Part shown: piece by piece, positions 3,639 through 27,138 of the stretch | How the letters are laid out: every line of letters starts with the position of its first letter | How positions within the stretch are numbered: the first letter of the stretch is position 1 | NCBI RefSeq assembly: GCF_000025505.1 | Contig: NC_013849.1 | Span: forward strand, 1,980,001-2,012,000 | Source of the DNA: Ferroglobus placidus DSM 10642 | GTDB taxonomy: Archaea; Halobacteriota; Archaeoglobi; Archaeoglobales; Archaeoglobaceae | Reading direction: 5' to 3' | Length of the DNA: 32,000 nucleotides | Notes under the pieces: generated by a model | The model's database searches: none | Seen by the model: the letters and a program-made list of their open reading frames with translations, nothing else | Told to the model about the DNA's origin: nothing | Made by a program: the position numbers and the translations under genes

Positions 3639-3969
3639 TTTCGACCGCCCTTACAAATTCGTTATATACGAACTTGACAGCCTCGTCGACTTTCTTCTCT
3701 GCCTCTCTAATGAGTTCGTTGATTTCTGCAAGTCTCTTCTCCCTAATCTCATTTCTCTCCTTCTCAATTTCGGCTTTGCCCTTCTCAACTATCTCGTTGT
3801 ATATTCTTTGCGCCTCTTTCTCAGCGTCTTCGACTATTTTTCTTGCTTCCTCCTTAGCTGCGAAAATTCTTCTGTTTGCCTCTTCCTTGGCTTTCTTTAT
3901 TTCTTCGTCTATTTTCTCCTCAACCTCTTTTATTTTCCTGAGGATTTCTGTTTTGTCCATGATATCCAC
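3631..3969 (-). CDS. atpH: A-type ATP synthase subunit H (peripheral stalk, coiled coil)
   Basis: 112 aa, K/E-rich helical protein and first gene of the operon. RBS GGTGG lies just upstream. A TATA-like CCTTAAAT (minus strand, about 4011-4018) lies about 40 nt upstream. Confidence 0.75.
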   Translation of the reverse strand: MDIMDKTEILRKIKEVEEKIDEEIKKAKEEANRRIFAAKEEARKIVEDAEKEAQRIYNEIVEKGKAEIEKERNEIREKRLAEINELIREAEKKVDEAVKFVYNEFVRAVENA

Positions 3970-4082
3970 CCCGATAACAGTCAGACTGAGTGATTCGAGA
4001 ATGGGTATGTATTTAAGGTTTTTCTTTTTGTCGAACTGAGAAAGTGTCCTCTTATATCAACAAGCTGAGAAAACGAGAATCC

Positions 4083-4391
4083 TTAGCCGTGAAAGTCTTT
4101 TTCACCTTTTATGCCTATAGCGATGTTGGCTTTGAGAGCTACTTCGAAGTATTCTTCGTCTGGTTCAAGCAAAACGAAGCGTTTTGGAACGGGAATTGCA
4201 AGAAATTCTCCGAAGTCCTTGTTGTTCTCTCCTACGTAAACGTTGTAAAACTCTCTCGTCTCCTTGTGAAGGAGCAAGTAAACCTCTTTGTTCTCTCTGA
4301 CGAGCTGCATCAGTCTTTTCTTGTCTATTTTTTCGAAAATCTCGTTACAGATCTCTTCAGCCAACTTCGACGATTCGTCTTCAAGTACCAT
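4083..4391 (-). CDS. hypothetical small cytoplasmic protein
   Basis: 102-aa ORF with normal composition. A TATA-like GATATATAC lies about 35 nt upstream on the minus strand. I recognise no family. Confidence 0.5.
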   Translation of the reverse strand: MVLEDESSKLAEEICNEIFEKIDKKRLMQLVRENKEVYLLLHKETREFYNVYVGENNKDFGEFLAIPVPKRFVLLEPDEEYFEVALKANIAIGIKGEKDFHG

Positions 4392-4660
4392 TTCGAGGGA
4401 TGATTCAAAACGAAGTAGTATATATCTGTTTCTGAATTTCCAACGCGTCCAAAAATTAATCTAATTTTTATAATATCGAAGGAAATTCGAGATTCGATGC
4501 GAAAATAGAACTTGTAATAACAATTCTCTTTATACGTTATTCCAATCGTGACTTAAGATAAATTAAGAGAAGTTATTATTGCTCCTCTATAAGCTTCTTC
4601 AGATGCATCAAAATTGCTGATTAATACTCTCGAAAAGGTAAAGTTTACGGTACTGTATAA

Positions 4661-4711
4661 TATCGATAACCGTTAAATTTATATCGGTCTTCCACATGAT
4701 TAATTGTGACA
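4661..4711 (+). promoter_or_regulatory. promoter/operator cassette P1: 19-mer ATAACCGTTAAATTTATAT (4666-4684) plus 18-mer ACATGATTAATTGTGACA (4694-4711)
   Basis: The 19-mer recurs exactly at 7295-7313 (minus strand) and 18122-18140. The 18-mer recurs exactly at 18151-18168. The TATA (TTTATAT, 4678-4684) predicts a TSS near 4702-4708, inside the 18-mer. Confidence 0.75.
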
Positions 4712-4743
4712 CCAGTTTGCTTCTTGCTATGGGGGTGCAGATA

Positions 4744-6057
4744 ATGAAAAACTACATGTACAACAAAAAAATTGAGACGATGAAAAGGGAAAAAATTAAG
4801 GATCTACAATTCAAAAGGCTGAAAGCAACTGTAAAAAGGCTTTACGAAAATGTACCATACTACAGAAGGAAGATGAAAGAAGCAAATGTAAAACCTGAGG
4901 ATATAAAAACTCTCGATGACATCAGAAAATTGCCCTTCACAGAGAAGGAAGATTTGAGAAAAAATTATCCTTTTGGACTCGTTGCAGTTCCTCTGGAAAA
5001 AGTTGTTGAGCTTCATGCCTCTTCTGGAACTACTGGAAAGCCGACAACTGTTGTTTACACTCGAAAAGATCTTGAAGTCTGGGGAGAGGTAATGGCTCGC
5101 TGCTTAGCTATGTCAGGTTTGACTAAGAAAGACATCTTCCAGAATCCGATACCCTACGGTCTTTTTACCGGAGCTTTCGGATTTCATTACGGGGCATTAA
5201 AAATAGGTGCGTTAATAGTTCCGAGTAGCGGCGGAGATTCAAAAAGACAAATAACACTAATGAAGGATTACGGAACTACTTTCATGTCAGGAGTCGTTTC
5301 CTACGCTCTGCATTTGGCAAAAGTGGCGATGGACATGGGAATAGATCCGAGCAAAGATCTGAACGTTCGAGCCGGGTTGTTTGGAGCTGAGATATTTACG
5401 GAAAGCTTGAGGAAAAAACTCAACGATTTATGGGGCATGGATGCCCATAACGTTTACGGGTTAAGTGAAATGTGTGGACCGGGAGTTTCTGCCGATTGCG
5501 ACCAGCATGACGGACTACACCTCTGGGAGGACCACTTCCTCGTTGAATGCATAGATCCAAAAACCGGTGAACCAGTTGAAGCTGAGGAGAAAGGAGAACT
5601 TGTTATTTCGACGCTAACAAAAGAGGCTATGCCACTTCTCAGATACAGAACGAGAGATCTTGCCTTCATCTACGATTGTAAGGAGTGCGATTGCGGAAGA
5701 ACGCACGTAAAGCATTCTACGATTGTAGGCAGAACTGACGACATGATAATAGTCAGCGGAACGAACATTTTCCCGAGCCAAATCGAAGAAGTCGTCATGA
5801 AACACCAGAAAGGAGGAGTTGAGTACAGAATTATCCTCGAAAAGAATGGATATCTTGACGTCATGACCGTCGAAGTCGAATCTTTACACCCGTTATCAGA
5901 AGAAGAGAAGAAAACGCTTGCTGAATATTACGCCAACGAAATAAAGTCCGTAACCGGATACAAGCCAAGGGTTAGGATTCTCGATCCCGGAACTATTGTG
6001 AGAGAAGGGATAAAGGCTAAGAGGATCATAGATCTAAGACCTAAAGAAAGCTCCTAA
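4744..6057 (+). CDS. phenylacetate-CoA ligase family (PaaK / coenzyme F390 synthetase-like) adenylate-forming CoA ligase
   Basis: Motifs: YYRRKMKEANVKPEDIKTLDDIRKLPFTEKEDLR, P-loop SSGTTGKPT, and the PaaK-type C-terminal domain. I start the gene at ATG 4744 (MKNYMY), preceded by SD-like GGGGGTG. The track start at 4696 lies in the promoter box, probably upstream of the TSS. Confidence 0.8.
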   Translation: MKNYMYNKKIETMKREKIKDLQFKRLKATVKRLYENVPYYRRKMKEANVKPEDIKTLDDIRKLPFTEKEDLRKNYPFGLVAVPLEKVVELHASSGTTGKPTTVVYTRKDLEVWGEVMARCLAMSGLTKKDIFQNPIPYGLFTGAFGFHYGALKIGALIVPSSGGDSKRQITLMKDYGTTFMSGVVSYALHLAKVAMDMGIDPSKDLNVRAGLFGAEIFTESLRKKLNDLWGMDAHNVYGLSEMCGPGVSADCDQHDGLHLWEDHFLVECIDPKTGEPVEAEEKGELVISTLTKEAMPLLRYRTRDLAFIYDCKECDCGRTHVKHSTIVGRTDDMIIVSGTNIFPSQIEEVVMKHQKGGVEYRIILEKNGYLDVMTVEVESLHPLSEEEKKTLAEYYANEIKSVTGYKPRVRILDPGTIVREGIKAKRIIDLRPKESS

Positions 6058-6060
6058 CAG

Positions 6061-7236
6061 TCAGATTATTCCCTCTTTTTTAAGCTCCTCCACATCGTAT
6101 CCAAGTTTTGAGTAAATCTCCTCGTTGTGCTCTCCAAGTCTCGGAGCAAAAGTTAACTGTTTTGTTTTCGTTGTCACTGGAGGAGGGGCAAGTAAAACCT
6201 CCAATCCCGTCTTTTCGTCTCTTGTTTTCCAAAGCTTTGAAGATAGGTAAGAATCTTCAAATATCTGCGGAAGCGTTGTTACTTTCGAAATCGGTATTCT
6301 TGCTTTTTTAAAAAGCTCTATAATCTCTTCAGTGTTTCTTTTTGAAAGAATTTCCTCAAGATCTCTGTCTAATTGTTCTTCGTTAGCCTTTCTTCGGTTG
6401 TTCGTGCTGTAGATATCTTTTTTGAGAATTTCAAACCCGGGAAGACTGCAAAGCCTCTCCCACTGAGCCTCGCTCCCTATGGCTATCGAGACATAGCCGT
6501 CTTTTGTTCTGTAAACACCCACTGGAGCGAAAATCGGATGCTTGTTCCCAGATTTTGGCACCTTTATTCCTAAACTGACCATCGGGATGTGTAAGGCAAG
6601 TAAAGATAAACAGCAGTCGAGCATCGAAATGTCAATTCTACATCCCTTTCCCGTTTTCTCCCTTATTAAAAGTGCTTTCATTATTTCGCAATACGCTTGA
6701 TTCGCTGCTTCCAAATCTGCTATGGAAACACCGAACTTCAAAGGAGGACTATTCTCATCACCGTTGGTATCCATTATTCCAGAGTAAGCCTGTATCATTG
6801 GGTCGTAAGCCGCTTCTGGCCTTTCTGGACCGAAGCCCGAGATCCCAACCCAGATTATATCCTCTTTTATCGATCTTATCCTCTCGTAATCTATTCCAAG
6901 CTTTTTGTAGTTGCTTGGTACTTGATTTGTTGCAAAAATGTCAACATCGAACTCTTTAATCAGTTCTCCGAGAATTTCTTTTCCTTTCGGGGAGTTTAAA
7001 TTTAGCGTTATTGATTTTTTTCCAGAATTTATCCCCAAGAAATATGCGCTCATCCCCTCCTCATCCAACGCACTTTCCCCAACGTAGCGATTGGGATCAC
7101 CCCAAGGAGGCTCGACTCTAATAACCTCAGCCCCATCAGCAGCTAATCGCCACGTACAGTAAGGCAGCGAGACAGCCTGCTCAACGCTGAGGACAGTCAC
7201 TCCTTCCAGGAAGTTTTCCTTTAAGCAGCTTGACAT
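6061..7236 (-). CDS. family III CoA-transferase (CaiB/BaiF/Frc-like)
   Basis: Motifs: LEGVTVLSVEQAVSLPYCTWRLAADGAEVIRVEPPWGDPNRY and the family III Asp region GVSIADLEAANQA. I prefer ATG 7236, which has SD GGGGGGTG 4 nt upstream. The track TTG start at 7278 would lie upstream of the predicted TSS. Confidence 0.8.
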   Translation of the reverse strand: MSSCLKENFLEGVTVLSVEQAVSLPYCTWRLAADGAEVIRVEPPWGDPNRYVGESALDEEGMSAYFLGINSGKKSITLNLNSPKGKEILGELIKEFDVDIFATNQVPSNYKKLGIDYERIRSIKEDIIWVGISGFGPERPEAAYDPMIQAYSGIMDTNGDENSPPLKFGVSIADLEAANQAYCEIMKALLIREKTGKGCRIDISMLDCCLSLLALHIPMVSLGIKVPKSGNKHPIFAPVGVYRTKDGYVSIAIGSEAQWERLCSLPGFEILKKDIYSTNNRRKANEEQLDRDLEEILSKRNTEEIIELFKKARIPISKVTTLPQIFEDSYLSSKLWKTRDEKTGLEVLLAPPPVTTKTKQLTFAPRLGEHNEEIYSKLGYDVEELKKEGII

Positions 7237-7294
7237 TCCGCACCCCCCAAATTCTATAATTCTCCCAAATGATTTCAACTAGAGGATTTGAATG

Positions 7295-7318
7295 ATATAA
7301 ATTTAACGGTTATTGATC
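7295..7318 (-). promoter_or_regulatory. promoter/operator cassette P2: exact 19-mer ATAACCGTTAAATTTATAT in minus orientation
   Basis: Plus-strand atataaatttaacggttat at 7295-7313 is the reverse complement of the 19-mer. The upstream flank GATCA matches the TATC[G/A] flank of the other copies. It lies about 60 nt upstream of the CoA-transferase ATG. Confidence 0.7.
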
Positions 7319-7495
7319 GCGTACACACTTAACTTTGCAGTCTTTAAAACCAAAATAAGAGAGTCAGAATATGCAAAAATCGTAGATCAAGGAATTATAA
7401 CTAGTTTATTGCTAATTTAAATCCGTAAAATCTCTTTTTCATAAGATTTCTCTTAAAATTTGAAATTTTAAAGATGTAGCTTGGGAAGCAAAATC

Positions 7496-7555
7496 AATTA
7501 ACCATTAACTGATTGACGAAAAAGTTAAATATTTGGTATCTATTAATCATGCTAA
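7496..7555 (+). promoter_or_regulatory. candidate degenerate version of the cassette upstream of the symporter pair
   Basis: TTAACCATTAAC (7498-7509) differs from TTAACCGTTAA by 1 nt. It is separated from the TATA-like GTTAAATATTTGGT (about 7524-7537). ATTAATCATG, the reverse complement of CATGATTAAT, follows. Confidence 0.35.
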
Positions 7556-7600
7556 TTAAGTAATTCATAAAGTGTGGAGCTGAAAACGGAGGGACTCGAA

Positions 7601-7720
7601 ATGGCGAAGGTTTTGGGTTTAGATCCGGCTATTGGAGTGATATACATAGTGAACATATTGCTTATAGTTTTGTGGGTTGTTTTTTCCGTAGCAAATGCAA
7701 AAAGGAGAGGTGACCTTTGA
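7601..7720 (+). CDS. 39-aa single-TM small membrane protein, translationally coupled to the symporter (not in the ORF track)
   Basis: ATG 7601 is preceded by GGAGGG. Translation: MAKVLGLDPAIGVIYIVNILLIVLWVVFSVANAKRRGDL. The hydrophobic helix is followed by KRRG. Stop TGA 7718-7720 overlaps the symporter ATG 7720 (TGATG). Confidence 0.65.
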   Translation: MAKVLGLDPAIGVIYIVNILLIVLWVVFSVANAKRRGDL

Positions 7721-9234
7721 TGACGTACGAAATCTCTTGGGCAGTTCTTGTAATTTACATTTTAGCTATGCTTTATATCGGTTACTGGAGCTGGAAAAAG
7801 ACAAAAACCCTTGAAGACTATTACATAGCCGGGAGACAGCTCGGTCCGTGGATCATAGCATTTTCCTTCTTTGGAACGTATTTCAGCACAGCTGCTTTTC
7901 TGGGTGGAGGTGGATCCGGATTTCTGTTCGGTTTCCAGTGGTCCGCCTACTTAGCTTTCTTCCACATACTATTCGCAATACTCGCTTGGTGGCTGATAGC
8001 TCCAAGAATGAGAATTTTCTCAGAAAAGCTGAAATCCTTGACTATTCCCGATTTCTTCGAGTTTAGATACAACAGCAAACTTGCAAGATTGGTCGCATCG
8101 GTTATTATCATAATCTTCTTCGAGTTCTACATGATTTCGATTTACAAAGGTGCCGGGAACCTCTTTCAGGAAATGCTTGGCGTTTCGTATTTGGCAGGTA
8201 TCTTAATTACAGTAATCCCCGTGATAATATATACGGCAATGGGTGGATTCAGATCGGTAGCCATAACTGATCTCATTCAAGGTTGCATAATGCTCTTTGG
8301 TGCAATTTTGCTTTTCCTTCTCGTGATGTCTTACGTTGGAGGATGGAGCGAGGGAATTGCAAGACTTGAAGAAATGAAGCTCCTTGGAAAAGTTCCCGGA
8401 ACTGCCCTCACGACTCTCGGAGGTTTCGGACCTCCTCCAATCCTCAAAGCAGGTATGATGGTGCCTTTCATCCTCAGCTTAACTTTTGCTATAAGCATCG
8501 CTCAGCTCTCAAGCCCGCAGCTAATAATAAGGTTCTATGCAGCGAAGGATGAGAGAGTTATAACCAGAGGAATGATAATCGGACCAGTTATCATCGGTAT
8601 TTTTGCCTTAACTGTTTTTAGCGTCGGTCCATTTGCTTGGCTGGTAATTCCAGAACTCGTTCCAGAAGATCAGCTGATGACCTATCTGAAAGATCCAGAC
8701 TTAGTCGTACCGTTCCTTGTTGTAAATCTTTTCCCGCCGGTAGTCGATGCGATAATACTCACAGCCATAGTGGCTGCTGCGATGTCCACGATAAACTCTT
8801 TGCTGCTTGTCTTGGCAACTTCCCTTGGTAGAGATATTCTGCAAGTCGTTAAACCCGATTTAAGGGAGAGTACAGTTGTTTCTATAACAAGAGTGATGAC
8901 CTTCGTTTTTGCATTTATCCCGTTGCTCTTAGCAATAAACCCACCAGGAATAATAGTCACAATTGTAGGAGTGAGTTTCTCAGTCATAACAGCCGCTTTT
9001 CTTGCTCCATTAGTGCTTGGGTTATATTGGAAGGGTGGAACCGGCACTGCTGCTTGGGTTTCGATGGTCGTCGCTACGATAGTATGTGTTCTCTGGTACA
9101 TATACTATTACAGGGTTTACTGGATCTATCCAGTTGTTCCAGGGTTGCTCGTAAGCGTGCCCCTCTTCATAATTCTGAGCTTGGTAACAAAGAAACCTCC
9201 GCAAGAGGTAATTGAATTGCTCGACAAAAAATAA
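7720..9234 (+). CDS. sodium:solute symporter family (SSS; PutP/PanF/ActP-like) transporter
   Basis: About 504 aa with about 13 TM segments. The N-terminus is SSS-like: DYYIAGRQLGPWIIAFSFFGTYFSTAAFLGGGG. SD GGAGAGGTGA lies upstream of ATG 7720. Confidence 0.8.
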   Translation: MTYEISWAVLVIYILAMLYIGYWSWKKTKTLEDYYIAGRQLGPWIIAFSFFGTYFSTAAFLGGGGSGFLFGFQWSAYLAFFHILFAILAWWLIAPRMRIFSEKLKSLTIPDFFEFRYNSKLARLVASVIIIIFFEFYMISIYKGAGNLFQEMLGVSYLAGILITVIPVIIYTAMGGFRSVAITDLIQGCIMLFGAILLFLLVMSYVGGWSEGIARLEEMKLLGKVPGTALTTLGGFGPPPILKAGMMVPFILSLTFAISIAQLSSPQLIIRFYAAKDERVITRGMIIGPVIIGIFALTVFSVGPFAWLVIPELVPEDQLMTYLKDPDLVVPFLVVNLFPPVVDAIILTAIVAAAMSTINSLLLVLATSLGRDILQVVKPDLRESTVVSITRVMTFVFAFIPLLLAINPPGIIVTIVGVSFSVITAAFLAPLVLGLYWKGGTGTAAWVSMVVATIVCVLWYIYYYRVYWIYPVVPGLLVSVPLFIILSLVTKKPPQEVIELLDKK

Positions 9235-9243
9235 AATAATTAA

Positions 9244-10158
9244 TTATAATTTTTTATTTCTTTTTATAACTTCCACAAGCTTTGGAATAACTTCCTCCCA
9301 CCTGCTTACAATTCCGTAGTCTGCATATTCAAAAATTGGAGCGTTTTCATCTTTGTTTATTGCAAGTATTCTCTTTGCATGCATAACACCGATCATATGC
9401 TGAATTTGACCGGAAATTCCTACAGCTATGTAAAGTTCTGGCTTTATTTTCTTTCCAGAAAATCCTATCATTGTATCCTCTGGAAGCCACGAGTAATCGT
9501 AAGCTACCGGACGAGTACTTCCAAACTCAGCCTCGAGAATTTCTTTCAGCTCGTAAAGTCGCTCTACGTTCTCTCTTTTCCCTACACCTCTTCCGAGTCC
9601 GATGACGACTCTAGCATTTTCAAGATCCACCTCCGACTTCTCTTTTTCTATCACTTCAATAACTTTTGTGTTTTCACTTACATCAACAGAAACTTGAGAT
9701 TCTTCTGGAATTTCGTTTCCCTCCTCTATTTCGAACACTTTTGGCATTACGCTTATAACTGCCGGAAGTCTGGAAAGTCTGATAGTTGCGATAGTTTTTC
9801 CGCTGAAACACATCCTTTCAACTACAATACTTTCTCCCACATCTATTTTCGTCACATCGGTGACGCACGGATAGCCGAGTCTTTGCGCAACTCTAGGGGC
9901 TATTTCTTTTCCTCTCTTTGTAGCTCCTACAAGTATCAAATCGAAGTTTTCCATTTTTGCAACATTTTCAATCGCAGCAACTGCGTGGTCTTCAAACCTT
10001 ATATTCGAAGAAATACTGCATCTCAGAACCTTGTCAGCGAAACCCTCAAAGCTTTCGGAGGAGTATGTTAAAACAAAAGCTCTCTCCTTAAAAGGTCTTA
10101 CGCCAGAAAGGATTTCCTTTGCAACTTCATCGTTATCTGAAAAAACGAGAAGTTTCAC
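9244..10158 (-). CDS. etfA: electron transfer flavoprotein alpha subunit
   Basis: 304 aa. The C-terminal FAD-binding region reads PELYIAVGISGQIQHMIGVMHAKRILAINKDENAPIF. It overlaps etfB by 4 nt. Confidence 0.85.
   Translation of the reverse strand: MKLLVFSDNDEVAKEILSGVRPFKERAFVLTYSSESFEGFADKVLRCSISSNIRFEDHAVAAIENVAKMENFDLILVGATKRGKEIAPRVAQRLGYPCVTDVTKIDVGESIVVERMCFSGKTIATIRLSRLPAVISVMPKVFEIEEGNEIPEESQVSVDVSENTKVIEVIEKEKSEVDLENARVVIGLGRGVGKRENVERLYELKEILEAEFGSTRPVAYDYSWLPEDTMIGFSGKKIKPELYIAVGISGQIQHMIGVMHAKRILAINKDENAPIFEYADYGIVSRWEEVIPKLVEVIKRNKKL
9249..9264 (+). terminator. oligo-T tract, candidate archaeal terminator for the symporter unit
   Basis: TTTTTTATTTCTTTTT lies 15 nt after the symporter stop, inside the 3' end of convergent etfA. 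Confidence 0.3.
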
Positions 10159-10913
10159 AGAATTCCCTCCTTTATAAGCTCAGAAACTATTTCATTGACA
10201 GCTTTATCCACATCTTCCTTGTAAATCTTTTTCTTCCTATCGATACGCGGAGCTTTGTTTCTCAGAACCTCAATGTTGCTTCCAACGCTAATACCGAGTT
10301 CCGAAGTTTCAAATCTTTCAACGGGTTTCTTAGCAGCTTTTAATATTTGAGACAAAGAAGGTAACCTCGGTTCATTGATTTCGTTTGTGACAGTGAGAAC
10401 AGCGGGCATACTAGCCTCAACCCTCTCAAACCACTCCTCCAAATCCCTCAATACAACGATTTTTCTCGATTCTACATCAATTTTCTCGATTCTTCTTACG
10501 AAAGTCAAAATAGGAAGTTTCAAAATTTCCGCAACCCTCGGACCGACTTGGGCAGTGTGAGTGTCTATGGAAGCTTCTCCGAAAAACAATAAGTCAAAAT
10601 CTTCGATGTTCCTGACGATCTCAGCTATTGTTAAAGCCGTGCTCTCAGTATCAATTAATTCACGAACAGCAATAACTTTTGCTTCGTCTCCACCAATAGC
10701 AAGCGCTTCTTTTACAACACTACTGACATAATCTCCGACAACAATCACCGTAATTTTCCCGCCAAATTTTTCTTTTATTCTCACAGCTTCTTCTAAAGCG
10801 TTTTTACTCAAATCATCAAGCTTTGTTGGAAAGGTAATCGGCTCGAGGGTTTGAGGGTCTATTTTCACCTGATCAACGTCGACAGCCTGCTTTGCGCAGA
10901 CAACTACATGCAT
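10155..10913 (-). CDS. etfB: electron transfer flavoprotein beta subunit
   Basis: 252 aa. Motifs: MHVVVCAKQAVD..., DLLFFGEASIDTHTAQVGPRVAEILKLP, and the ETF-beta recognition loop region. Confidence 0.85.
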   Translation of the reverse strand: MHVVVCAKQAVDVDQVKIDPQTLEPITFPTKLDDLSKNALEEAVRIKEKFGGKITVIVVGDYVSSVVKEALAIGGDEAKVIAVRELIDTESTALTIAEIVRNIEDFDLLFFGEASIDTHTAQVGPRVAEILKLPILTFVRRIEKIDVESRKIVVLRDLEEWFERVEASMPAVLTVTNEINEPRLPSLSQILKAAKKPVERFETSELGISVGSNIEVLRNKAPRIDRKKKIYKEDVDKAVNEIVSELIKEGIL

Positions 10914-11002
10914 CCGATCACCATTAATTGTTTACCGATAGTTTTAAATATAATTTTCGGTTTAATTCCATTATCATTAAGGAAAAATCTGGAGGTGAAA
11001 AG
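10914..11002. promoter_or_regulatory. 89-bp divergent intergenic region with a quasi-palindromic TATA (TTTTAAATATAA, 10942-10953) and an ATTAATTGT box (10923-10931)
   Basis: The single AT-rich box is spaced to serve both etfB (ATG 10913, near-leaderless) and the FadH-like gene (SD 10991-10998, TTG 11003). ATTAATTGT is the core of the 18-mer found at P1 and P4. Confidence 0.4.
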
Positions 11003-12943
11003 TTGCTGAAACACCTTTTTGAGCCGATTAAAATCGGGAAATTCAAAATTAAAAACCGGGTAAAGTACGCAGCCTGTTCGGTTTCGAACTTCAACAATCC
11101 AGATGGAACAGTTTCTGAAAGAGAGCTTGCGAGAATGAGAGTTGTTGCAAAAACCGGATGCGGGATAATAACAAACCAAGGTGCTTACCCAGACAGAGAA
11201 GGGTATGGAAAAGGATATGCAAGACAGCTAGCTATATATGACGATAAATTCATACCCGGGCTGAGGAAGATAGCGGAGATAATTCACAACGAGGGGGCTA
11301 TAGCGATACAGCAGATTTTGCATGCTGGAAGGTACGGTGGCTACGACACGGGCATAGCGTTGCAACCATCTCCGGTTCCTCAGAAACTGAGACACTACAG
11401 ACCAGTAAGGGAAATGACGAAAGAGGAGATAAGGAAGGTAATAGTCGATCATGCAGAGGCTGCCAGAAGAGCAATAGAGGCGGGATTTGACGGAGTGGAA
11501 ATTACGGCATTTATGGGTTACTTGTTGGCAAACTTCCTTTCCCCCTTCACAAACAAGAGGACTGACGAGTACGGAGGTGATGTGGAAAAAAGATGCAGAT
11601 TCATGGTTGAGACGATCGAAGCTATAAGAGGGAAGATAGGAGACGACAAACTGATCTCCATAAGATTGAACGGGGCTGAACTTCTTGACGAGGTTGGAGG
11701 TAGCACTGAAGAGGAGTGCTTGGAGTACATGAAAATTGCAGAAGAGGCAGGGGTGGATATAATAAGCATAGTCGTGGGATGGCACGAGTCTTCGAAAGGA
11801 GCGTTAGGAAGAGATTTGCCAACTACTCAGTGGCTTTACTTAGCTGAAAGAGCTAAGAAACATCTCAAAGTTCCGATAGCTTTTGGACCTCGTTTTGGAG
11901 ACCCAAGACTTGCTGATAAGGCTATAGCAGACGGGATAATCGACCTGTGGGAGATCTGCCGTCCAGCATTAGCTGATCCGGAAATTTTACACAAAGCCAA
12001 GGAAGGTAGATTCGATGAAATTAAGCCTTGTTTGGGAGGTCTAATGTGCCTATCCACGATGTTCCACGACTTACCGTACATCTGCACGGTTAATCCAAGA
12101 ATCGGTCATGAAATAGAGCCAGAATACGAGATCAAACCAGCTGTTAGGAGAAAAAAGGTTGTAATAGTTGGAGGAGGACCGGCAGGTTTGGAATGTGCGG
12201 TTACGGCAGCTAAAAGAGGGCATGAGGTAATACTCTACGAAAAGGAGGACAAGCTTGGAGGACAGTTGATTCCAGCTTCAAAAGAAATAGGAGGAGGTTA
12301 CGTTTTTCTCGATCTGATAAGGTATTATGAAGTTCAGCTGAAAAAGCACGGGGTGAAGGTTTACACTGGAGTTGAGGTTACCCCAGAAATAATAATGAAA
12401 GAAAAACCCGATGTGCTCGTTTTAGCTACTGGGGCAACGATAACAAAAGATTACAACGAAGTAAATGGAGTTAAGATTTACACGGCTATAGAATTACTAA
12501 AAGATGAAAGAATTGCAGAAGAAATTGGTGATAATGTCGTTGTCGTTTCTGGAGAAAGGGCGGGTTTAGTTGCAGCAGAATACCTCGCGAAAAAAGGGAA
12601 AAAAGTGACGATAGTTGAAGAGGGTAAGAAAATAGCAAAAGACGTAATCCCAACGTTCAAGTGGAGGCACAAGTTATGGGTTAGCGAGCTTGGGATAAAT
12701 GTAATCACCGAAGGAAAGATTGGAGAGATAAAAAAGAACAAATGCGTAGTTAAAACGAAAAACGGTGATGTAGAAGTCCCAGCTGATGCAATAGTTTTAG
12801 GAGGTCCGAGAAAACCTATCAACGGTCTCTGGAGCAGTATAGAATTTTTGGCAGATGAAAAATACATAATAGGAGATGCGGTTTTGCCGAGATCGATTGC
12901 TTACGCAATACACGAGGGTTACAAGCTCGGAGCGAGGATTTAA
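11003..12943 (+). CDS. 2,4-dienoyl-CoA reductase / enoate reductase-like flavoprotein (OYE-type TIM barrel plus Fe-S linker plus FAD/NAD(P) domain)
   Basis: Motifs: LFEPIKIGKFKIKNRV, QILHAGRYG, the C-terminal dinucleotide fold VVIVGGGPAGLECA, and a second Rossmann region. I start at TTG 11003, 5 nt after GGAGGTGA. The track start at 10928 lies in promoter DNA. Confidence 0.8.
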   Translation: MLKHLFEPIKIGKFKIKNRVKYAACSVSNFNNPDGTVSERELARMRVVAKTGCGIITNQGAYPDREGYGKGYARQLAIYDDKFIPGLRKIAEIIHNEGAIAIQQILHAGRYGGYDTGIALQPSPVPQKLRHYRPVREMTKEEIRKVIVDHAEAARRAIEAGFDGVEITAFMGYLLANFLSPFTNKRTDEYGGDVEKRCRFMVETIEAIRGKIGDDKLISIRLNGAELLDEVGGSTEEECLEYMKIAEEAGVDIISIVVGWHESSKGALGRDLPTTQWLYLAERAKKHLKVPIAFGPRFGDPRLADKAIADGIIDLWEICRPALADPEILHKAKEGRFDEIKPCLGGLMCLSTMFHDLPYICTVNPRIGHEIEPEYEIKPAVRRKKVVIVGGGPAGLECAVTAAKRGHEVILYEKEDKLGGQLIPASKEIGGGYVFLDLIRYYEVQLKKHGVKVYTGVEVTPEIIMKEKPDVLVLATGATITKDYNEVNGVKIYTAIELLKDERIAEEIGDNVVVVSGERAGLVAAEYLAKKGKKVTIVEEGKKIAKDVIPTFKWRHKLWVSELGINVITEGKIGEIKKNKCVVKTKNGDVEVPADAIVLGGPRKPINGLWSSIEFLADEKYIIGDAVLPRSIAYAIHEGYKLGARI

Positions 12944-13340
12944 TGGTAGTGTCACTATAATGTTGATAAATTATAGTAATGAATCCACAGTTTGATTGAA
13001 TTTCGAGCATTTCCAAAGATCTTGAAAATCTGATTGATTTTCTTGCGAATCTCGGATTGTCGTTTCGTAAAGTTAAGAATAATCTTTCAACGTGGTTTGT
13101 TCCTCCTTTTCTTATGATCCTCTGTTTGTAAGGGATCAAATTATAAGCGTCCCAGCGATCCGTGTAAAAGATAGCTTTCTGCTTGATCTCACCACCAATA
13201 CCGTCCCACAACCTTTTGAAAGTACCTACAGAACGATCTCCTACGGCATAACTTATTATTTTTCGGGAATTTCTCTCTAAAGCAATCCAAATCCAGACTT
13301 CTTTTTCCTTTTTCCTAACGAAACTCCAAGCTTCATCCAA
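12819..13340 (-). CDS. insB: IS1-family transposase catalytic part (InsB-like)
   Basis: DEAWSFVRKKEKEVWIWIALERNSRKIISYAVGDR...FYTDRWDAYNLIP...TNHVERLFLTLRNDNPRFARKSIRFSRS matches the IS1 InsB pattern. The frame is open upstream to 13412. It has no stop inside the element and runs about 40 codons into DNA antisense to the FadH-like 3' end. Confidence 0.75.
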   Translation of the reverse strand: MDEAWSFVRKKEKEVWIWIALERNSRKIISYAVGDRSVGTFKRLWDGIGGEIKQKAIFYTDRWDAYNLIPYKQRIIRKGGTNHVERLFLTLRNDNPRFARKSIRFSRSLEMLEIQSNCGFITIIYQHYSDTTIKSSLRACNPRVLRKQSISAKPHLLLCIFHLPKILYCSRDR

Positions 13341-13750
13341 TTCAACAACAGGATTATCGTGACCGATTTCATTTCTCAGGTCTTTTTTTAGAAAATTCTC
13401 TAACCCAAGCCGTTACAGTGTTAGGAGAAAGCTTGAAAATCCTGCTCGCTTGTCTTACTCCCACTCCCTCCCTTACCACAGCCTTCACAACCATCTCCTT
13501 GAATTCTTCCGGATAATTCCTCGGCTTTATCGGATTTAAAACAAAAGTTCTTCCGCAGTTCTTGCATTTGTATCTCTGCCTCCTTTCTCCGGATTTTGTG
13601 TGATAACAGCCCATTTTCACAGTTTTTATCGATTTGCAATGCGGACACATCATCACCGATTTATCCAACTAATTGAATATAAACATTACTGAGGCATTAT
13701 CAATTTAATTTTTTCTAAACTTATTTTTTGTCATGATAGTGAAAATTTGG
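12944..13750 (-). mobile_element. IS1-family insertion sequence (boundaries approximate)
   Basis: It contains InsA-like and InsB-like ORFs. An imperfect terminal inverted repeat has the core TCACTATAATG (12952-12962) paired with CATGATAGTGA (13732-13742), about 16/22 over the extended arms. The left end GGTAGTG resembles the classical IS1 GGTGATG terminus. I found no target-site duplication. Confidence 0.6.
13369..13668 (-). CDS. insA: IS1-family transposase N-terminal part (InsA-like; Zn finger plus HTH)
   Basis: CPHC...CKNC zinc finger, then the HTH region GVGVRQASRIFKLSPNTVTAWV. It ends 44 nt inside the InsB frame, and the overlap contains an A7 run. Confidence 0.75.
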   Translation of the reverse strand: MDKSVMMCPHCKSIKTVKMGCYHTKSGERRQRYKCKNCGRTFVLNPIKPRNYPEEFKEMVVKAVVREGVGVRQASRIFKLSPNTVTAWVREFSKKRPEK

Positions 13751-14953
13751 GAAAATCATCCCTGGTTGATAGATACTGATAAGTTTAAAAGATTTAATCA
13801 GAAGTATACTATGTTCAGTAGAACTGGCTGGGATAAGAAAGTAAAAGAAATGGCAAGAAAAAGCGTTGAGAGTGTCGTGAGAAACATAAAATATGGAAAA
13901 CGCTCATCTCTTCTTGATTACGCTTTTATGTCTGCTGGTTGGTGGGTTGCGATAAAAGGTGCTCCTTTTCAGATGGATTACGGAGATGGCGGACTGATAA
14001 GTTGGAAGAGTGACATTTCACCGATATTTTCGATAGCTTCTCCTTTCTGGAACGAAAAATTAAGTGAATTCAGGAAAAAGTTTAGAGAAGATGCTGAGAA
14101 AAATCCGGAAAAACTCACCAGAGTTGTAAAGAAAGTTGCAAAGTATTTCGGAGCAGATCTTGTCGGTGTAGCCGAATTTGACGAAAGGTGGGTGTATTCG
14201 GCAAGAGTGCTTAATCCGAGATATCATATCGGGAAGGAATTTATTGAAGAGTCTCTGGAACTGCCAGAAGTTAGGTACTGCATAGTGCTCGCTATCAAAG
14301 AGGATTATGAAATGCAATCTACAGCCGACGGTGGAGTTTCAATGGGAGACATAGCCTTTGGATATTCAAAAATGGCTATTGTAGCCGGAAGTCTTGCCGA
14401 ATTTCTCAGAGCGTTAGGTTTTACAGCTATCCCAAGCGGTAACGACCTGGCGTTAAGCATCCCATACGCTATTTCCGCCGGACTTGGAGAATATAGTAGA
14501 ATGGGCTTACTTATAACTAAAAAGTTCGGTCCTCGAGTTAGACTCGCTAAGGTTTTCACTGACACCCCCCTCAAAGCTGATAAACCCGTAAGATTTGGTG
14601 TTTACGAATTTTGCTTGAAGTGTAAAAAATGTGCTGAGAAATGCCCGGCTAAGGCGATTCCCTTCGAAGATCCGAGTTGGAAAAGAAAAACTATAAGCAA
14701 CATTGAAGGAATTTACAAGTGGCATGTGGATGTTGAAAAATGCTTCGAATACTGGTGTAAGTCTGGAAATCTGGGATGTGGAGTTTGCGTAAGGGTTTGT
14801 CCATACAACAAACCCTCAGGAAGAACTTATTTTATCCACGCATTTTTCAGAGAATATATTGTTCCGATTGTTGGTGGTAAAGTTGCTAAAATCTTCGACG
14901 ATTTGCTTGGATACGGGAAGAGGAAATCCTCTTCCGAGTGGTGGAATTCGTGA
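13733..14953 (+). CDS. reductive dehalogenase-like (RdhA family) corrinoid/Fe-S protein, cytoplasmic type; QueG-like is the alternative
   Basis: 406 aa. Two C-terminal ferredoxin motifs are present: CLKCKKCAEKCP, and C-x6-CGVCVRVCP. The N-terminal DKFKRFNQKYTMFSR resembles the RdhA N-terminal motif. There is no twin-arginine signal. Confidence 0.55.
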   Translation: MIVKIWENHPWLIDTDKFKRFNQKYTMFSRTGWDKKVKEMARKSVESVVRNIKYGKRSSLLDYAFMSAGWWVAIKGAPFQMDYGDGGLISWKSDISPIFSIASPFWNEKLSEFRKKFREDAEKNPEKLTRVVKKVAKYFGADLVGVAEFDERWVYSARVLNPRYHIGKEFIEESLELPEVRYCIVLAIKEDYEMQSTADGGVSMGDIAFGYSKMAIVAGSLAEFLRALGFTAIPSGNDLALSIPYAISAGLGEYSRMGLLITKKFGPRVRLAKVFTDTPLKADKPVRFGVYEFCLKCKKCAEKCPAKAIPFEDPSWKRKTISNIEGIYKWHVDVEKCFEYWCKSGNLGCGVCVRVCPYNKPSGRTYFIHAFFREYIVPIVGGKVAKIFDDLLGYGKRKSSSEWWNS

Positions 14954-14961
14954 TTGTTTGG

Positions 14962-15022
14962 TATCGTTAACCGTTAAATTTATATTGGTTTTTCAGCTAA
15001 AAATTGTGATAATAAATCACAA
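14962..15022 (+). promoter_or_regulatory. promoter/operator cassette P3: TTAACCGTTAAATTTATAT (14967-14985) plus perfect 7-5-7 palindrome TTGTGAT-AATAA-ATCACAA (15004-15022)
   Basis: It matches the 19-mer at 18/19 positions and forms a perfect TTAAC-C-GTTAA inverted repeat. AATTGTGA (15002-15009) sits 17 nt after the TATA end, the same spacing as at P1 and P4. Confidence 0.7.
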
Positions 15023-15051
15023 CTTATTAGGGGTTAGGGGTGGTGGAATTT

Positions 15052-15918
15052 ATGGATATCAACGAAATTTGCGTAGTTGGGGCTGGGACAATGGGACATG
15101 GAATCGCTCAAGTAGCTGCGATGCATGGCTACGATGTCGTTATGGTGGATATAAAGCAAGAGATAATTGACAGCGCCTTTGAAAAGATAAAAGCAAGTTT
15201 AAATAAGTTGGCTGAAAAGGGAAAATTCGACGCAAATAAGATAGATGACGTTTTGGAGAGAATAAAGGGGACGACAAAGCTTGAAGATGCGAAGAATTCC
15301 GATTTCGTAATAGAGTCTGTTCCGGAAGTAATGGAAATTAAACAGGATGTTTTTAGAAAGCTCGATGAGATATGTCACAGAGAAGCTATTTTCACCTCCA
15401 ACACTTCGGCTTTAAGCATAACGGAGATGGCTTCAGTTACGAAGAGAAAGGACAAGTTTGCCGGAATGCACTGGTTCAATCCCCCGCAGATAATGAAGCT
15501 GATAGAAGTGATAAAAACGATAGATACTTCCGAAGAAACTCTCAACACCGTCGTAAACTTAGCAAAAGAGTTCGGAAAAGAAGTGGTGATTTGCAAGGAT
15601 TCCGTCGGCTTTATAGTTAGCAGAGCTCTTCAGGCTTTCGTTACCGAATGTATCCGAATTCTCGAAGAGGGCGTAGCTTCGGCAGAAGATATTGATAAAG
15701 CAATAAAGCTCGGATTGAACCATCCGATGGGTCCTTTTGAACTTCTTGACTTCACGAACGGAATCCCAGTGATATTTCATGCGGGAGAAGTTATGAGGAA
15801 GGTTTATGGAGAGAGATTCACTGTTCCTCAGACGGTCAGAATGCTCTACTATTCAGGCAGACATGGAAGGAAAAGCGGAAGAGGTTTTTACGACTACACC
15901 AAGGGTGAAAAGGAATGA
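15052..15918 (+). CDS. hbd: 3-hydroxyacyl-CoA (3-hydroxybutyryl-CoA) dehydrogenase
   Basis: ICVVGAGTMGHGIAQVAAMHGYDVVMVDI is an NAD Rossmann fold. HWFNPPQIMKLIEV and the C-terminal dimerisation domain are present. I prefer ATG 15052 (MDINE) after GGGGTGGTGG; the track GTG at 15040 is possible. Confidence 0.85.
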   Translation: MDINEICVVGAGTMGHGIAQVAAMHGYDVVMVDIKQEIIDSAFEKIKASLNKLAEKGKFDANKIDDVLERIKGTTKLEDAKNSDFVIESVPEVMEIKQDVFRKLDEICHREAIFTSNTSALSITEMASVTKRKDKFAGMHWFNPPQIMKLIEVIKTIDTSEETLNTVVNLAKEFGKEVVICKDSVGFIVSRALQAFVTECIRILEEGVASAEDIDKAIKLGLNHPMGPFELLDFTNGIPVIFHAGEVMRKVYGERFTVPQTVRMLYYSGRHGRKSGRGFYDYTKGEKE

Positions 15919-17081
15919 GTGATGTTGCAATAGTGGGAGCTGGGACAACCAAGTACGGAAAGCATCTTGACAAATCAGCAACCGACTTGGCGCAGCTAGC
16001 GGTAAAGGAGGCTATTGAAAGTGCCGAAAACATATCGATCGAAGACTTCGACGGCTTTGTTCTCAGCTCCCAGAATCCAGAGATCCTTCAAAAGCAGGGA
16101 AATTCGGTAAACCACTTCTCTGAATTTCTAGGGATTAAAGCGAAGTTTGCCACTCGTGTCGAAGGGGCTTGTGTAAGTGGAAGCATGGGGCTAATTACGG
16201 GCTACATGGCTGTAAAATCGGGGCTTGTAGATCTTTGCTTGGTTGTAGGTGTTGAGAAGTGTTACGAGCTCCCCTCAAGCTCAGACATAATGGCAGCTTT
16301 TTCTTACGTTATAGACAGAGACTGGGAGGCAGCCTTAGGTTCTAACGCACCGATGGGTTTTGCTATGTTTGCAACGAGACATATGAGTATTTACGGAACA
16401 AAAGAGGAACAACTTGCAATGGTAGCTGTGAAGAACAGAAAATTCGCTTCGAAAAATCCGAAAGCCCATTTTCAAAAACCTATAACGATCGAAGACGTTT
16501 TAAATTCCCGACCAATTTCCAAACCTCTCAAGCTTCTCGATTGCTGTCCAGTGAGTGATGGAGCTTCGGCGGTGATTTTAACGAGAAAAGAACTCGCTAA
16601 GAATTACACTGATACGCCAGTCTATATAAAAGGGTTCGGGCAGTATCTAATCAATGAGAATGTTATAAGCAGCATTTCAGATCTGACGGAATTTACAGCT
16701 CTGAAGATCGCTGCAAGAGAAGCATACAAACGAGCAAAAATAGAGCCGAAGGATGTAGATGTTGCAGAAGTGCACGACTGCTTTACAATAGCTGAAATCC
16801 TTGAGATAGAAGCGTTGGGTTTCTGCAATAAGGGAGAGGGTGGGAGGTTTGTAGAAGAGGGAGAGACTGACTTGGGCGGAAAAATTCCAGTAAATACTGG
16901 AGGAGGTTTGCTTTCGAGGGGACATCCAATAGGTGCAACTGGGATTTGTCAAGCGGGAATAATCTTCGAGCAGCTGAGAGGAGAGGCTCCAAAAGGAAGA
17001 GCCGTTGATGCGGAAATTGGACTAACCCAAAATCTCGGAGGATGGGGTACGAGCCAGGCAGTCATAATTTATTCGAGGTGA
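15915..17081 (+). CDS. thiolase-superfamily protein (archaeal/SCP-x-type acetyl-CoA C-acyltransferase)
   Basis: 388 aa. Motifs: the active-site Cys region VEGACVSGS, the C-terminal NTGGGLLSRGHPIGATG, and EVHDCFT. Its ATGA start overlaps the hbd stop. Confidence 0.8.
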   Translation: MSDVAIVGAGTTKYGKHLDKSATDLAQLAVKEAIESAENISIEDFDGFVLSSQNPEILQKQGNSVNHFSEFLGIKAKFATRVEGACVSGSMGLITGYMAVKSGLVDLCLVVGVEKCYELPSSSDIMAAFSYVIDRDWEAALGSNAPMGFAMFATRHMSIYGTKEEQLAMVAVKNRKFASKNPKAHFQKPITIEDVLNSRPISKPLKLLDCCPVSDGASAVILTRKELAKNYTDTPVYIKGFGQYLINENVISSISDLTEFTALKIAAREAYKRAKIEPKDVDVAEVHDCFTIAEILEIEALGFCNKGEGGRFVEEGETDLGGKIPVNTGGGLLSRGHPIGATGICQAGIIFEQLRGEAPKGRAVDAEIGLTQNLGGWGTSQAVIIYSR

Positions 17082-17085
17082 AAAA

Positions 17086-17505
17086 ATGAAAATTATGGAA
17101 GTACCTCCTCGCTATCCGAACTTTGAACAGACTGCCATAAAGAAGTTCTGGGATTCTTTAAAAGAAAAAAAGCTTCTTGCTACAAAATGCTCAGAATGCG
17201 GAAAAATAGAATTTCCTCCGAAAATCGTGTGTACCTCTTGTTACTCGGACAAGATGGAGTGGACCGAACTGCCTAAGAGGGGAAGAATCTACTCTTTTAC
17301 AGAAATGCATGTCGTACCAACGGGTTTCAAGCCTCCTTTGACGGTTGCTGTTGTGGAGCTGGAAAACGGAGTGAGGCTGTTTAGCTACGTAGTTAATGCA
17401 AGATTCGAAGAGCTGAACGTTGGAGATGAGGTCGAGATAGATTTTCAGGAGATAAACTGGTACGACTACAAAAAACATCCGTACTTCGTTTTTAGAAAAA
17501 TATGA
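17086..17505 (+). CDS. DUF35 Zn-ribbon/OB-fold protein (thiolase partner)
   Basis: 139 aa. It has the rubredoxin-like CSECGKIEFPPKIVCTSC followed by an OB-fold segment. This is the classic pairing immediately downstream of an archaeal-type thiolase. Confidence 0.8.
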   Translation: MKIMEVPPRYPNFEQTAIKKFWDSLKEKKLLATKCSECGKIEFPPKIVCTSCYSDKMEWTELPKRGRIYSFTEMHVVPTGFKPPLTVAVVELENGVRLFSYVVNARFEELNVGDEVEIDFQEINWYDYKKHPYFVFRKI

Positions 17506-17515
17506 GGTGTTCTAT

Positions 17516-17980
17516 ATGTCTCAAGCTGAGAAGGATCTAAAAGTTATGTGGAACATTTGCCGAGACTTCTTTTACAAATGGAGATCAGTTGTTGAGGAGG
17601 AATTCGGTAGAGAGAAGGCAAGAGAGCTCGTGAAAAAGTTCTGGGAAAAAGTTGGAGAGGGTACTGCAGAACTATACAAAGAGCACGGAGTAAATCCGGA
17701 AAGTCTCAGTGAGATAGCTAAAGCAATAGCGAGAAGCAGTGAAATCATGGGAGAAAGAGTGGAAATAATAGAAAAAGGAGATAGAGTTATCGTCAGACAT
17801 ACCTCATGCCCTTGGTTCGACTGGGCTAAGAGGTTCGGATTGGAGGAGGAGGATAAAGAAGGATGTGATATCTGGTTTAAAGTGACTGTAGAGAAGATGA
17901 ACCCTAGAGCAAAGGTTGAATCAACGAAATCTTTCGCAGCTGGAGACGATTTTTGTGAGAGAATAATTTATTTTAAATAA
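17516..17980 (+). CDS. small Cys-containing protein, possibly ATC-hydrolase-like/V4R-related ligand-binding fold (uncertain)
   Basis: 154 aa from ATG 17516, 6 nt after GAGGTG. Motifs: HTSCPWFDWAKRFG...EGCDIWF...AAGDDFCERIIYF. The C-terminal GDDxCE resembles the end of the V4R protein at 21955. Confidence 0.4.
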   Translation: MSQAEKDLKVMWNICRDFFYKWRSVVEEEFGREKARELVKKFWEKVGEGTAELYKEHGVNPESLSEIAKAIARSSEIMGERVEIIEKGDRVIVRHTSCPWFDWAKRFGLEEEDKEGCDIWFKVTVEKMNPRAKVESTKSFAAGDDFCERIIYFK

Positions 17981-18004
17981 TTATTTAAATTTTTAAAATT
18001 TTTA
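17981..18004 (+). terminator. T-run cluster, candidate terminator of the hbd operon
   Basis: TTATTTAAATTTTTAAAATTTTTAG lies directly after the stop at 17980. Confidence 0.3.
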
Positions 18005-18022
18005 GAAATCTAAGATAAACCG

Positions 18023-18033
18023 ATAACAGTTAT
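18023..18033. promoter_or_regulatory. perfect 5-1-5 inverted repeat ATAAC-A-GTTAT, a second operator-like site about 90 bp upstream of P4
   Basis: CGATAACAGTTA shares 11 of 12 positions with CGATAACCGTTA of P1; only the central spacer base differs. Confidence 0.4.
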
Positions 18034-18116
18034 TGTTGGCGGTGCGTGAGGTGCTTGAAGCGCTTAGTAAGTTAAAGTTCAGAGTTTTCGTTTCTTCAAT
18101 TTTTCCAATTTTTCAC

Positions 18117-18168
18117 TATCAATAACCGTTAAATTTATATTGGTTAGATTACATGATTAATTGTGACA
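18117..18168 (+). promoter_or_regulatory. promoter/operator cassette P4: exact 19-mer (18122-18140) plus exact 18-mer ACATGATTAATTGTGACA (18151-18168)
   Basis: Both boxes are identical to P1, with a 10-nt spacer against 9 nt at P1. The SD AAGAGGTG (18175-18182) and hyuA ATG 18188 follow. Confidence 0.75.
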
Positions 18169-22446: not shown

Positions 22447-22452
22447 TGTTTT

Positions 22453-23595: not shown

Positions 23596-23605
23596 GGTGA
23601 CGATT

Positions 23606-25634: not shown

Positions 25635-25657
25635 AGCATGAAAGCGGAGTGTTAAAA

Positions 25658-27137: not shown

Positions 27138-27138
27138 G

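Follow-up and report, generated by a model that had tools for sequence, protein, structure and literature searches.

A promoter cassette with a conserved upstream element, apparently copied among catabolic transcription units of Ferroglobus placidus

A box of 19 nucleotides, ATAACCGTTAAATTTATAT, heads four catabolic transcription units in a gene island of the archaeon Ferroglobus placidus DSM 10642. The window analyzed is a stretch of 32,000 nucleotides (NC_013849.1, positions 1,980,001 to 2,012,000), and all coordinates given here are those of the window. Comparison with close and distant relatives has shown the four boxes, as far as sequence can tell, to be homologous copies of one ancestral hyuA-operon promoter. 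The reading preferred here, to which we give a probability of roughly 0.6, is that a promoter cassette copied from the ancestral hyuA promoter carries an upstream element that would be bound by a sequence-specific factor and would place the units under common control. The local regulon signal is real and conserved, and much of the striking identity of the boxes is explained by ordinary core promoter sequence and by promoter duplication.

Four copies of one promoter

A sequence-only reading of this DNA had listed three exact copies of ATAACCGTTAAATTTATAT, at 4666-4684 (+), 7295-7313 (-) and 18122-18140 (+), and a fourth that matches at 18 of 19 positions, at 14967-14985 (+), the mismatch being the first base, T. 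A scan of the window bears out all four; it returned no further match at three or fewer mismatches, and none was found in 100 dinucleotide-preserving shuffles. The flanks are also as described there, TATC[G/A] or GATCA upstream and [T/C]GGT downstream in three copies. The bases directly 5' of the four boxes read TATCG, GATCA, TATCG and TATCA, and YGGT stands directly 3' of copies 1, 3 and 4. The inverted repeat TAAC-C-GTTA to which that reading drew attention is present in the window copies, where it spans 9 bp and is longer at hbd (TTAAC-C-GTTAA). All four copies are intergenic and oriented toward a start codon 50-65 nt downstream (CoA ligase, ATG 4744; CoA-transferase, ATG 7236 on the minus strand; hbd, ATG 15052; hyuA, ATG 18188), each of which is preceded by a Shine-Dalgarno-like GGTG.

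Promoter copy 1 (4661-4684, +) belongs to the PaaK-type CoA ligase gene and is composed of TATCGATAA upstream, the B recognition element (BRE) CCGTTAAA at 4670-4677, and the TATA box TTTATAT at 4678-4684. The same CCGTTAAA and TTTATAT follow GATCAATAA in copy 2 (7295-7318, -), ahead of the family III CoA-transferase gene, TATCGTTAA in copy 3 (14962-14985, +), ahead of the hbd-thiolase-DUF35-ATC_hydrolase unit, and TATCAATAA in copy 4 (18117-18140, +), ahead of the hyuA-to-ThiS/MoaD operon. Copy 3 is probably an internal promoter, because it begins only 9 nt past the stop codon of the preceding gene. Copy 4 is, by comparison with other lineages, the orthologue of the ancestral promoter.

The shared sequence does not end with the box, and three kinds of feature were recognized beyond those noted earlier: a block common to copies 1 and 4, an inverted repeat at 15004-15022, and weaker relatives of the box at three sites, which are taken up below. 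The block, ACATGATTAATTGTGACA (4694-4711 and 18151-18168, both +), is identical at 18 of 18 positions (E = 2.5e-5). It is located about 10 nt beyond the box at the expected transcription start, and comprises an AT-rich proximal element and a predicted initiator, whose TG is about 21 nt past the TATA box. Transcription in archaea is expected to start approximately 22-27 nt downstream of the TATA box; a TG dinucleotide, within TGTGA, lies 20-22 nt past TTTATAT in copies 1, 3 and 4. Between copies 1 and 4 the 9-10 nt spacer that separates the TATA box from ACATGATTAATTGTGACA has diverged while both flanking blocks are identical, which argues for sequence-specific constraint on the box and on ACATGATTAATTGTGACA. 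The perfect inverted repeat TTGTGAT-AATAA-ATCACAA (15004-15022, +) is situated at the predicted start of the hbd unit and is conserved in relatives; it is possibly a second, putative operator.

Conservation in close relatives

Close relatives are represented by a Ferroglobus sp. metagenome-assembled genome (MAG; S146_96), contigs of one metagenome and two ENA scaffolds, which have about 88% nucleotide identity to the window. Identity at four-fold degenerate sites is 0.63, and all four boxes (76 positions) are unchanged, for which the neutral chance is 0.63^76, or about 6e-16. At box 2 there are substitutions on either side and none within ATCAATAACCGTTAAATTTATATCATTCAA; in the region of copy 3, 72 nt (14961-15032) are free of substitutions; and ACATGATTAATTGTGACA at 4694-4711 has a single substitution in the Ferroglobus relative. 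The copies were in place before F. placidus and its 88%-identical relatives diverged and have undergone no base change since, which argues that every position of the box is under selection.

Upstream of box 1 the species are unalignable, and homology returns only at 4660, 6 nt before the box. The 223 nt ahead of this box (4437-4659) correspond in position to 335 unalignable nt of the Ferroglobus sp. MAG, and TATAATATCGA is present twice in this upstream region, at 4469 and 4656. A metagenome scan with an extended 21-mer gave matches only at the four orthologous promoters, together with one unrelated hit, and the exact box looks to be confined to the island in the related MAG and the one metagenome.

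Core promoter and upstream element

It is important to separate what any archaeal promoter would share from what is particular to these four. Fifteen of the 19 bases of the box are CCGTTAAA plus TTTATAT, an ordinary, near-consensus BRE and TATA box. TTTATAT, of the TTTAWAT type, occurs in 4/4 copies, and the orthologous promoters have TTTA(T/A)A(T/A). CCGTTAAA has G at -6 and A at -3; the archaeal BRE consensus (RNWAAW or cCGAAA type) has a purine at -6 and A at -3, positions that are contacted by transcription factor B (TFB). TFB contacts no more than about 6-7 bp on the 5' side of the TATA box. Among the archaeal loci that were fetched, unrelated promoters share only (C)CGAAAAATTTAWA and read (C)CGAAAAA in the same register, and the element upstream of CCG is therefore specific to the island promoters.

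What sets the promoters apart is a stretch of about 9-10 nt that adjoins the BRE on its 5' side and consists of ATAA and the flank TATCR (TATCRATAA); the part specific to a regulator would fall mostly beyond the 19-mer, in TATCR and ATAA. The operator overlapping the BRE and TATA box that had been proposed from the sequence stands in so far as an extra conserved upstream element exists, whereas 15 of the 19 bases would need no operator and the specific part falls mostly beyond the box. In its extended form the motif has the pattern TATCRWTAACCGWTAA, with TATCAATAACCGTTAA as the Ferroglobus variant and TTATTGATTACCGATAA as the variant of other lineages. An inverted repeat ACC...GGT around the TATA box was considered as a further feature and rejected as not conserved; it is found in copies 1, 3 and 4 and at locus L128, and is missing from copy 2 and from L131, L133, L135 and L136.

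Five distant lineages (loci L128-130, L131-132, L133-134, L135 and L136), six with Ferroglobus, define how far the element extends. Their hyuA orthologues form a group with 71-77% identity, and the gene order of the hyuA operon is common to L128, L131, L133, L135, L136 and, among the Ferroglobus relatives, L137. In 5/5 distant lineages hyuA is preceded by ..CAACAAT..TTATTGATTACCGATAA(A/G)TTTA(T/A)A.., in which the upstream element is TTATTGATTA, as compared with TATCRATAA in Ferroglobus. When these promoters are aligned with those of Ferroglobus using MAFFT, invariance is limited to the columns AT..AT.ACCG.TAA.TTTA.A and to the ribosome-binding site. Because it is kept in the hyuA promoters of the five lineages and in these alignment columns, the element upstream of the BRE is, by this comparison, a phylogenetic footprint, and a transcription-factor site adjoining the BRE is likely. 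The earlier proposal that the boxes are promoters linking the island's transcription units, with more conserved sequence than a core promoter needs, is supported.

The hyuAB loci of a Methanomassiliicoccales-like group have neither the NrpR-like gene discussed below nor the box. Upstream of hyuA in two of them (L139, 9930-10000; L140, 3230-3300) is ATACCG(T/A)TTTTCC, which has a WACCGWT core in common with the box in a different arrangement and may be due to chance.

Probable origin of the copies by operon break-up and promoter copying

The positions of orthologous genes elsewhere reveal how the four promoters may have come about. In L128, L131 and L133 the big operon ends with the PaaK ligase orthologue (79-84% identity), and the hbd and thiolase orthologues (80-83%) lie within the etfBA operon in L133; in Ferroglobus, the PaaK ligase and hbd-thiolase are separate units, each with its own box. 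At L128 (17954-18240, -), an exact duplicate of the hyuA promoter and the first 48 hyuA codons is found ahead of the orthologous CoA-transferase gene (76% identity), and the copying mechanism is thereby seen directly. L129 and L130 also have an open reading frame (ORF) for a 46-48-aa hyuA N-terminal fragment upstream of the CoA-transferase gene. In F. placidus itself, similarity between the copies is left only in functional blocks. The ligase, CoA-transferase, hbd and hyuA products are unrelated proteins with near-identical upstream regions.

From the operon positions of the PaaK ligase and hbd genes and from the L128 duplicate, the identity of the boxes is best explained as common descent with strong selection, not as convergence at unrelated promoters. 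The argument that 19/19 identity at unrelated loci speaks for an operator thus falls, since the copies are homologous and stem from one ancestral hyuA-operon promoter.

The cassette that would descend from the ancestral hyuA-operon promoter comprises, from 5' to 3', the upstream element of about 9-10 nt, the BRE CCGTTAAA and the TATA box TTTATAT, followed in copies 1 and 4 by the AT-rich proximal element and the initiator. The catabolic genes would have been split into several units in the Ferroglobus lineage: the PaaK ligase, once the 3'-terminal gene of the big operon, and hbd-thiolase, once part of the etfBA operon, would have become separate. Each detached unit now carries a copy of the hyuA-type promoter.

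Further sites related to the box

Sites related to the box are noteworthy only in island promoters. The divergent promoter that serves the small-ORF/SSF symporter unit has its own BRE and TATA box (CGAAAAAG-TTAAATAT) and, about 15 nt 5' of them, the variant element ATCAATTAACCATTAAC (7493-7509, +), which is 100% conserved in the Ferroglobus sp. relatives L071 and L137. A variant box, AATTGTTTACCGATAG-TTTTAAATAT (10926-10952, +), occupies the 90-nt etfB/OYE divergent promoter and has the TTACCGATA core as in other lineages; TTTACCGATAG-TTTTAAATAT within it corresponds to 10932-10952. It scores 15.2 with a position weight matrix (PWM) built on the upstream element only, is identical in L137, and has a related site in the orthologous L135 intergenic region. 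The third site, AACCGATAACAGTTATTGTTGG (18018-18040, given without strand), with the palindrome ATAAC-A-GTTAT, is about 100 nt upstream of copy 4, contains ATAACAGTTAT at 18023-18033, and is kept in the Ferroglobus sp. MAG; read on the minus strand it gives CAACAATAAC, the element that other lineages have immediately 5' of the box. All three sites, at SSF, at etfB/OYE and ahead of hyuA, are kept in Ferroglobus relatives. Of the 20 hits of the upstream-only PWM, 13 are training sites, and the number of the others is near chance, with shuffles giving about 5.

The intergenic region at 3940-4060, between the ATPase operon and the ORF at 4044-4403, has 4 changes in 121 nt between species and is better kept than coding sequence; it holds CCGATAACAGT, the same as at 18019-18029.

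A candidate regulator and the alternatives

The hyuA operon contains a gene of the NrpR family (25658-26662, +) whose product has a winged-helix HTH_12 domain and one NRD domain (Pfam on ORF 25649-26662: PF08461 at 6e-22 and PF01995 at 7e-66). The gene is within the operon in 6/6 lineages that have the box, and no DNA-binding protein other than its product is conserved in the operon throughout these six. Its orthologues form a tight group with 65-70% identity, with the rest of the family at 42% or less. The next-closest NrpR homologues (38-39% identity) adjoin glutamate synthase genes; no association with nitrogen genes was found for the group itself, which resides in the hyuA/acyl-CoA/AOR operon in all six lineages. 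Ferroglobus has the recognition helix TVRYYLR and all the other lineages have AVRYHLR, which parallels the two variants of the motif. The sequence-only reading had named this protein as a candidate, a reasonable choice, but one that finds no canonical GGAAN6TTCC site in the promoters. It is most likely the best, though putative, candidate regulator of the box. The literature that was found contains nothing on NrpR homologues in Archaeoglobi and describes no archaeal regulator site matching the box, which agrees with the earlier statement on this point.

Another small protein that accompanies the operon, V4R (21955-22446; XylR_N-like in L131, L139 and L140), is encoded beside hyuAB in every lineage seen, including those without an NrpR-like gene. 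It was considered as a regulator and found unlikely, as it has no DNA-binding domain and is present with hyuAB even in lineages that lack the box; it is more likely an enzyme accessory or a sensor than a DNA-binding regulator.

Under the preferred reading of a copied and commonly controlled cassette, the upstream element, which abuts and overlaps the 5' edge of the BRE, would be bound by a transcription factor, giving shared control of the units, and the island is probably switched as one. The factor would be a repressor that blocks access of TFB and the TATA-binding protein (TBP) and is released by a pathway metabolite, and it would most likely be the operon-encoded NrpR-family paralogue, which would hence also regulate itself. 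As the BRE and TATA box already come close to the consensus, repression is somewhat favored over activation. The SSF site, located further upstream, suggests a better fit to activation or cooperative binding. A fuller form of the proposal is more tentative and, on balance, doubtful: that a distinct NrpR clade was recruited to a lactam/organic-acid catabolic operon with a new operator abutting the BRE, and that copying of the cassette preserved co-regulation after the operon break-up in Ferroglobus.

Several observations weigh against a dedicated regulator of this kind. Most of the 19-mer is generic BRE/TATA sequence. A scan of public-genome contigs with a 17-mer from the box listed at least 120 matches, with the F. 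placidus chromosome not among them; among the matches listed nearly all are chance singletons in bacteria, and some stand at promoter-like sites in other archaeal phyla, one of them ahead of a tRNA gene. The extent of the regulon is judged from the related MAG and one metagenome, the F. placidus scan being that of the window, and PWM hits outside the island promoters are at chance level only. The distance of the SSF site from its BRE (about 15 nt) is a poor fit to occlusion of the BRE. The palindrome TAAC-C-GTTA, which had been put forward as an operator feature, is specific to Ferroglobus and is ruled out as the defining feature, since the five other lineages have the non-palindromic TTAC-C-GATA in its place. 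The co-variation of recognition helix and motif is not above the protein's overall 30-35% divergence. Finally, the canonical operator GGAAN6TTCC has 2 matches in the 32 kb (1.1 expected), neither in a box promoter, and we know of no characterized NrpR operator described at this position, abutting the BRE. One of the two matches is inside etfA; the other is in the 3' end of the gene preceding the hbd unit and is not kept in the relative. The latter is held by a hairpin, GGAAGAGGAAATCCTCTTCC (14908-14930), at the 3' end of the dehalogenase-like gene, and it is the left half-site that is not kept in the relative.

The same element might instead bind an activator that recruits TFB and TBP, in the manner of Ptr2, TFB-RF1, EarA or GvpE, or be read by a regulator encoded elsewhere in the genome. 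A position immediately upstream of the BRE is, by textbook accounts and for EarA (PMC5512572), the typical place of an archaeal activator, the SSF element lies too far 5' of its BRE for a repressor bound there to occlude it, and the canonical NrpR operator is absent. We nevertheless regard this as rather unlikely, given that activator-dependent archaeal promoters usually have a weak BRE or TATA box (again a textbook generality) and those of the island are near consensus, and that the NrpR-like protein is the sole operon-conserved DNA-binding protein in the six lineages with the box.

Unlikely too, and ranked after it, is the view that the boxes are nothing other than strong constitutive core promoters, copied from one promoter, with BRE and TATA constrained and no dedicated regulator. 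It would account for the 15 of 19 nt that fit the generic BRE/TATA of unrelated archaeal promoters, for the listed 17-mer matches that occur by chance ahead of a tRNA gene and other genes in distant archaea, and for the promoter duplication directly visible in L128. It does not account for the invariance of 9-16 nt upstream of CCG across the five lineages, and of the other form in all Ferroglobus copies, which lies beyond the textbook reach of TFB (about 6-7 bp), nor for positions that are degenerate in the BRE and fixed in every Ferroglobus copy seen, nor for the related, conserved elements at the SSF promoter and ahead of hyuA, which stand apart from the BRE. That the box belongs to a dispersed repeat or a miniature mobile element in intergenic DNA, a possibility raised with the original proposal and suggested by the IS1-family element and split integrase in the island, is very improbable and was ruled out: the four copies share one orientation and distance to the start codon, their similarity stops after 20-24 nt (plus the one 18-nt block), terminal inverted repeats and target duplications are lacking, the extended box occurs only at the same four orthologous promoters in the related MAG and metagenome, and the box is orthologously conserved ahead of hyuA.

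Gene content of the island

By Pfam and NCBIfam matches, the island begins with A-type ATPase genes, followed by the PaaK-type CoA ligase (box 1) and the convergent family III CoA-transferase (box 2), then by the divergent small-ORF/SSF symporter unit, etfBA on the minus strand, an OYE/FadH-type reductase and an IS1 insertion. Next are a reductive-dehalogenase-like Fe-S protein and the unit of hbd, thiolase, DUF35 and ATC_hydrolase (box 3). The hyuA operon (box 4; 18188-29621, +) comprises hyuA, a frameshifted hyuB, V4R, acyl-CoA dehydrogenase, B12-binding and mutase subunits, the NrpR-like gene, ferredoxin, AOR, a small ORF and ThiS/MoaD, and is followed by the split integrase.

The IS1-family element (12945-13702; transposase ORFs 12819-13340 and 13369-13668, both on the minus strand) is inserted between the OYE reductase and Fe-S genes. 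It is absent from the Ferroglobus sp. relatives, in which these two genes are about 20-30 nt apart. The Fe-S protein (13733-14953, 406 aa) matches TIGR02486, a reductive dehalogenase subfamily, with 210.6 bits against a curated cut-off of 160.35.

The second gene of the operon, hyuB (20242-21955), is split into 485 aa and 110 aa by a frameshift in a T3C8 run at 21640-21655. In relatives it is intact (570-574 aa) with one T fewer, and three independent read-set assemblies match the window; hyuB may thus be a pseudogene in the type strain. The split archaeal-type integrase after ThiS/MoaD consists of two ORFs (PF16795; 29850-30554) and has no tRNA gene nearby; tRNA and Rfam scans gave no match. 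At the position of the integrase, L128, L131, L133 and L135 have a CoA_binding ligase gene after ThiS (fused to it in L131 and L133), and in L128, L131 and L133 this gene is followed by the PaaK ligase.

Significance and relation to known systems

To our knowledge, few archaeal regulons have been defined, and almost none in Archaeoglobi. The island offers a compact case, with four to six promoters within 15 kb, a candidate operator of 9-10 nt and a single candidate regulator, whose family is known only from nitrogen control and of which this would be, if the proposal is true, a re-purposed member with a new site. Co-regulation may outlive the break-up of an operon in an archaeon via promoter copying, a process caught at L128 with the promoter and 48 codons. 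The cassette is also a candidate strong, possibly inducible promoter for hyperthermophile genetics.

The candidate has the same HTH_12 and NRD make-up as NrpR of the methanogens Methanococcus maripaludis and Methanosarcina, would likewise use a short common site to act on several promoters, and would probably have a small metabolite as its effector, as NrpR has 2-oxoglutarate, which relieves its DNA binding. It differs in that the box promoters lack the methanogen operator consensus, GGAAN6TTCC (PMC2723118), and in that its gene is in a carbon-catabolic operon, not near nitrogen genes. The Thermococcales glycolytic motif (TGM; TATCAC-N5-GTGATA, bound by TrmBL1/Tgr) is similarly a short motif common to the promoters of linked operons that was first recognized in silico. 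Whether regulation is positive or negative is believed to depend on where TGM lies relative to the BRE and TATA box. No match to TGM at two or fewer mismatches was found in the window, and the box regulon differs in being local to one island, with copies that arose from promoter duplication. FadR of Sulfolobus acidocaldarius, of the TetR family, is a locally encoded regulator of several promoters in a fatty-acid (acyl-CoA) gene cluster of about 30 kb. The island resembles it in having a locally encoded candidate regulator for one acyl-CoA cluster; it differs in regulator family and site, and FadR sites are individually diverged, not near-identical promoter copies.

With the activators Ptr2, TFB-RF1, EarA and GvpE, of which no homologue was found in the island, the cassette shares a specific element that directly adjoins the BRE. 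The promoters served by these activators have weak core elements (BRE or TATA in the case of EarA; PMC5512572), whereas both are near consensus here. Reuse of promoters is itself already known: "putative mobile promoters" in prokaryotes are highly similar upstream regions before non-homologous genes in one genome (PMC3575422), and it is the box site and an NrpR-type regulator in Archaeoglobi that were not found in the literature. The Ferroglobus cassette reflects the same reuse of an upstream region, with the copying event visible in L128, but here in an archaeon, within one functional island, after operon break-up, and unchanged since before the species split.

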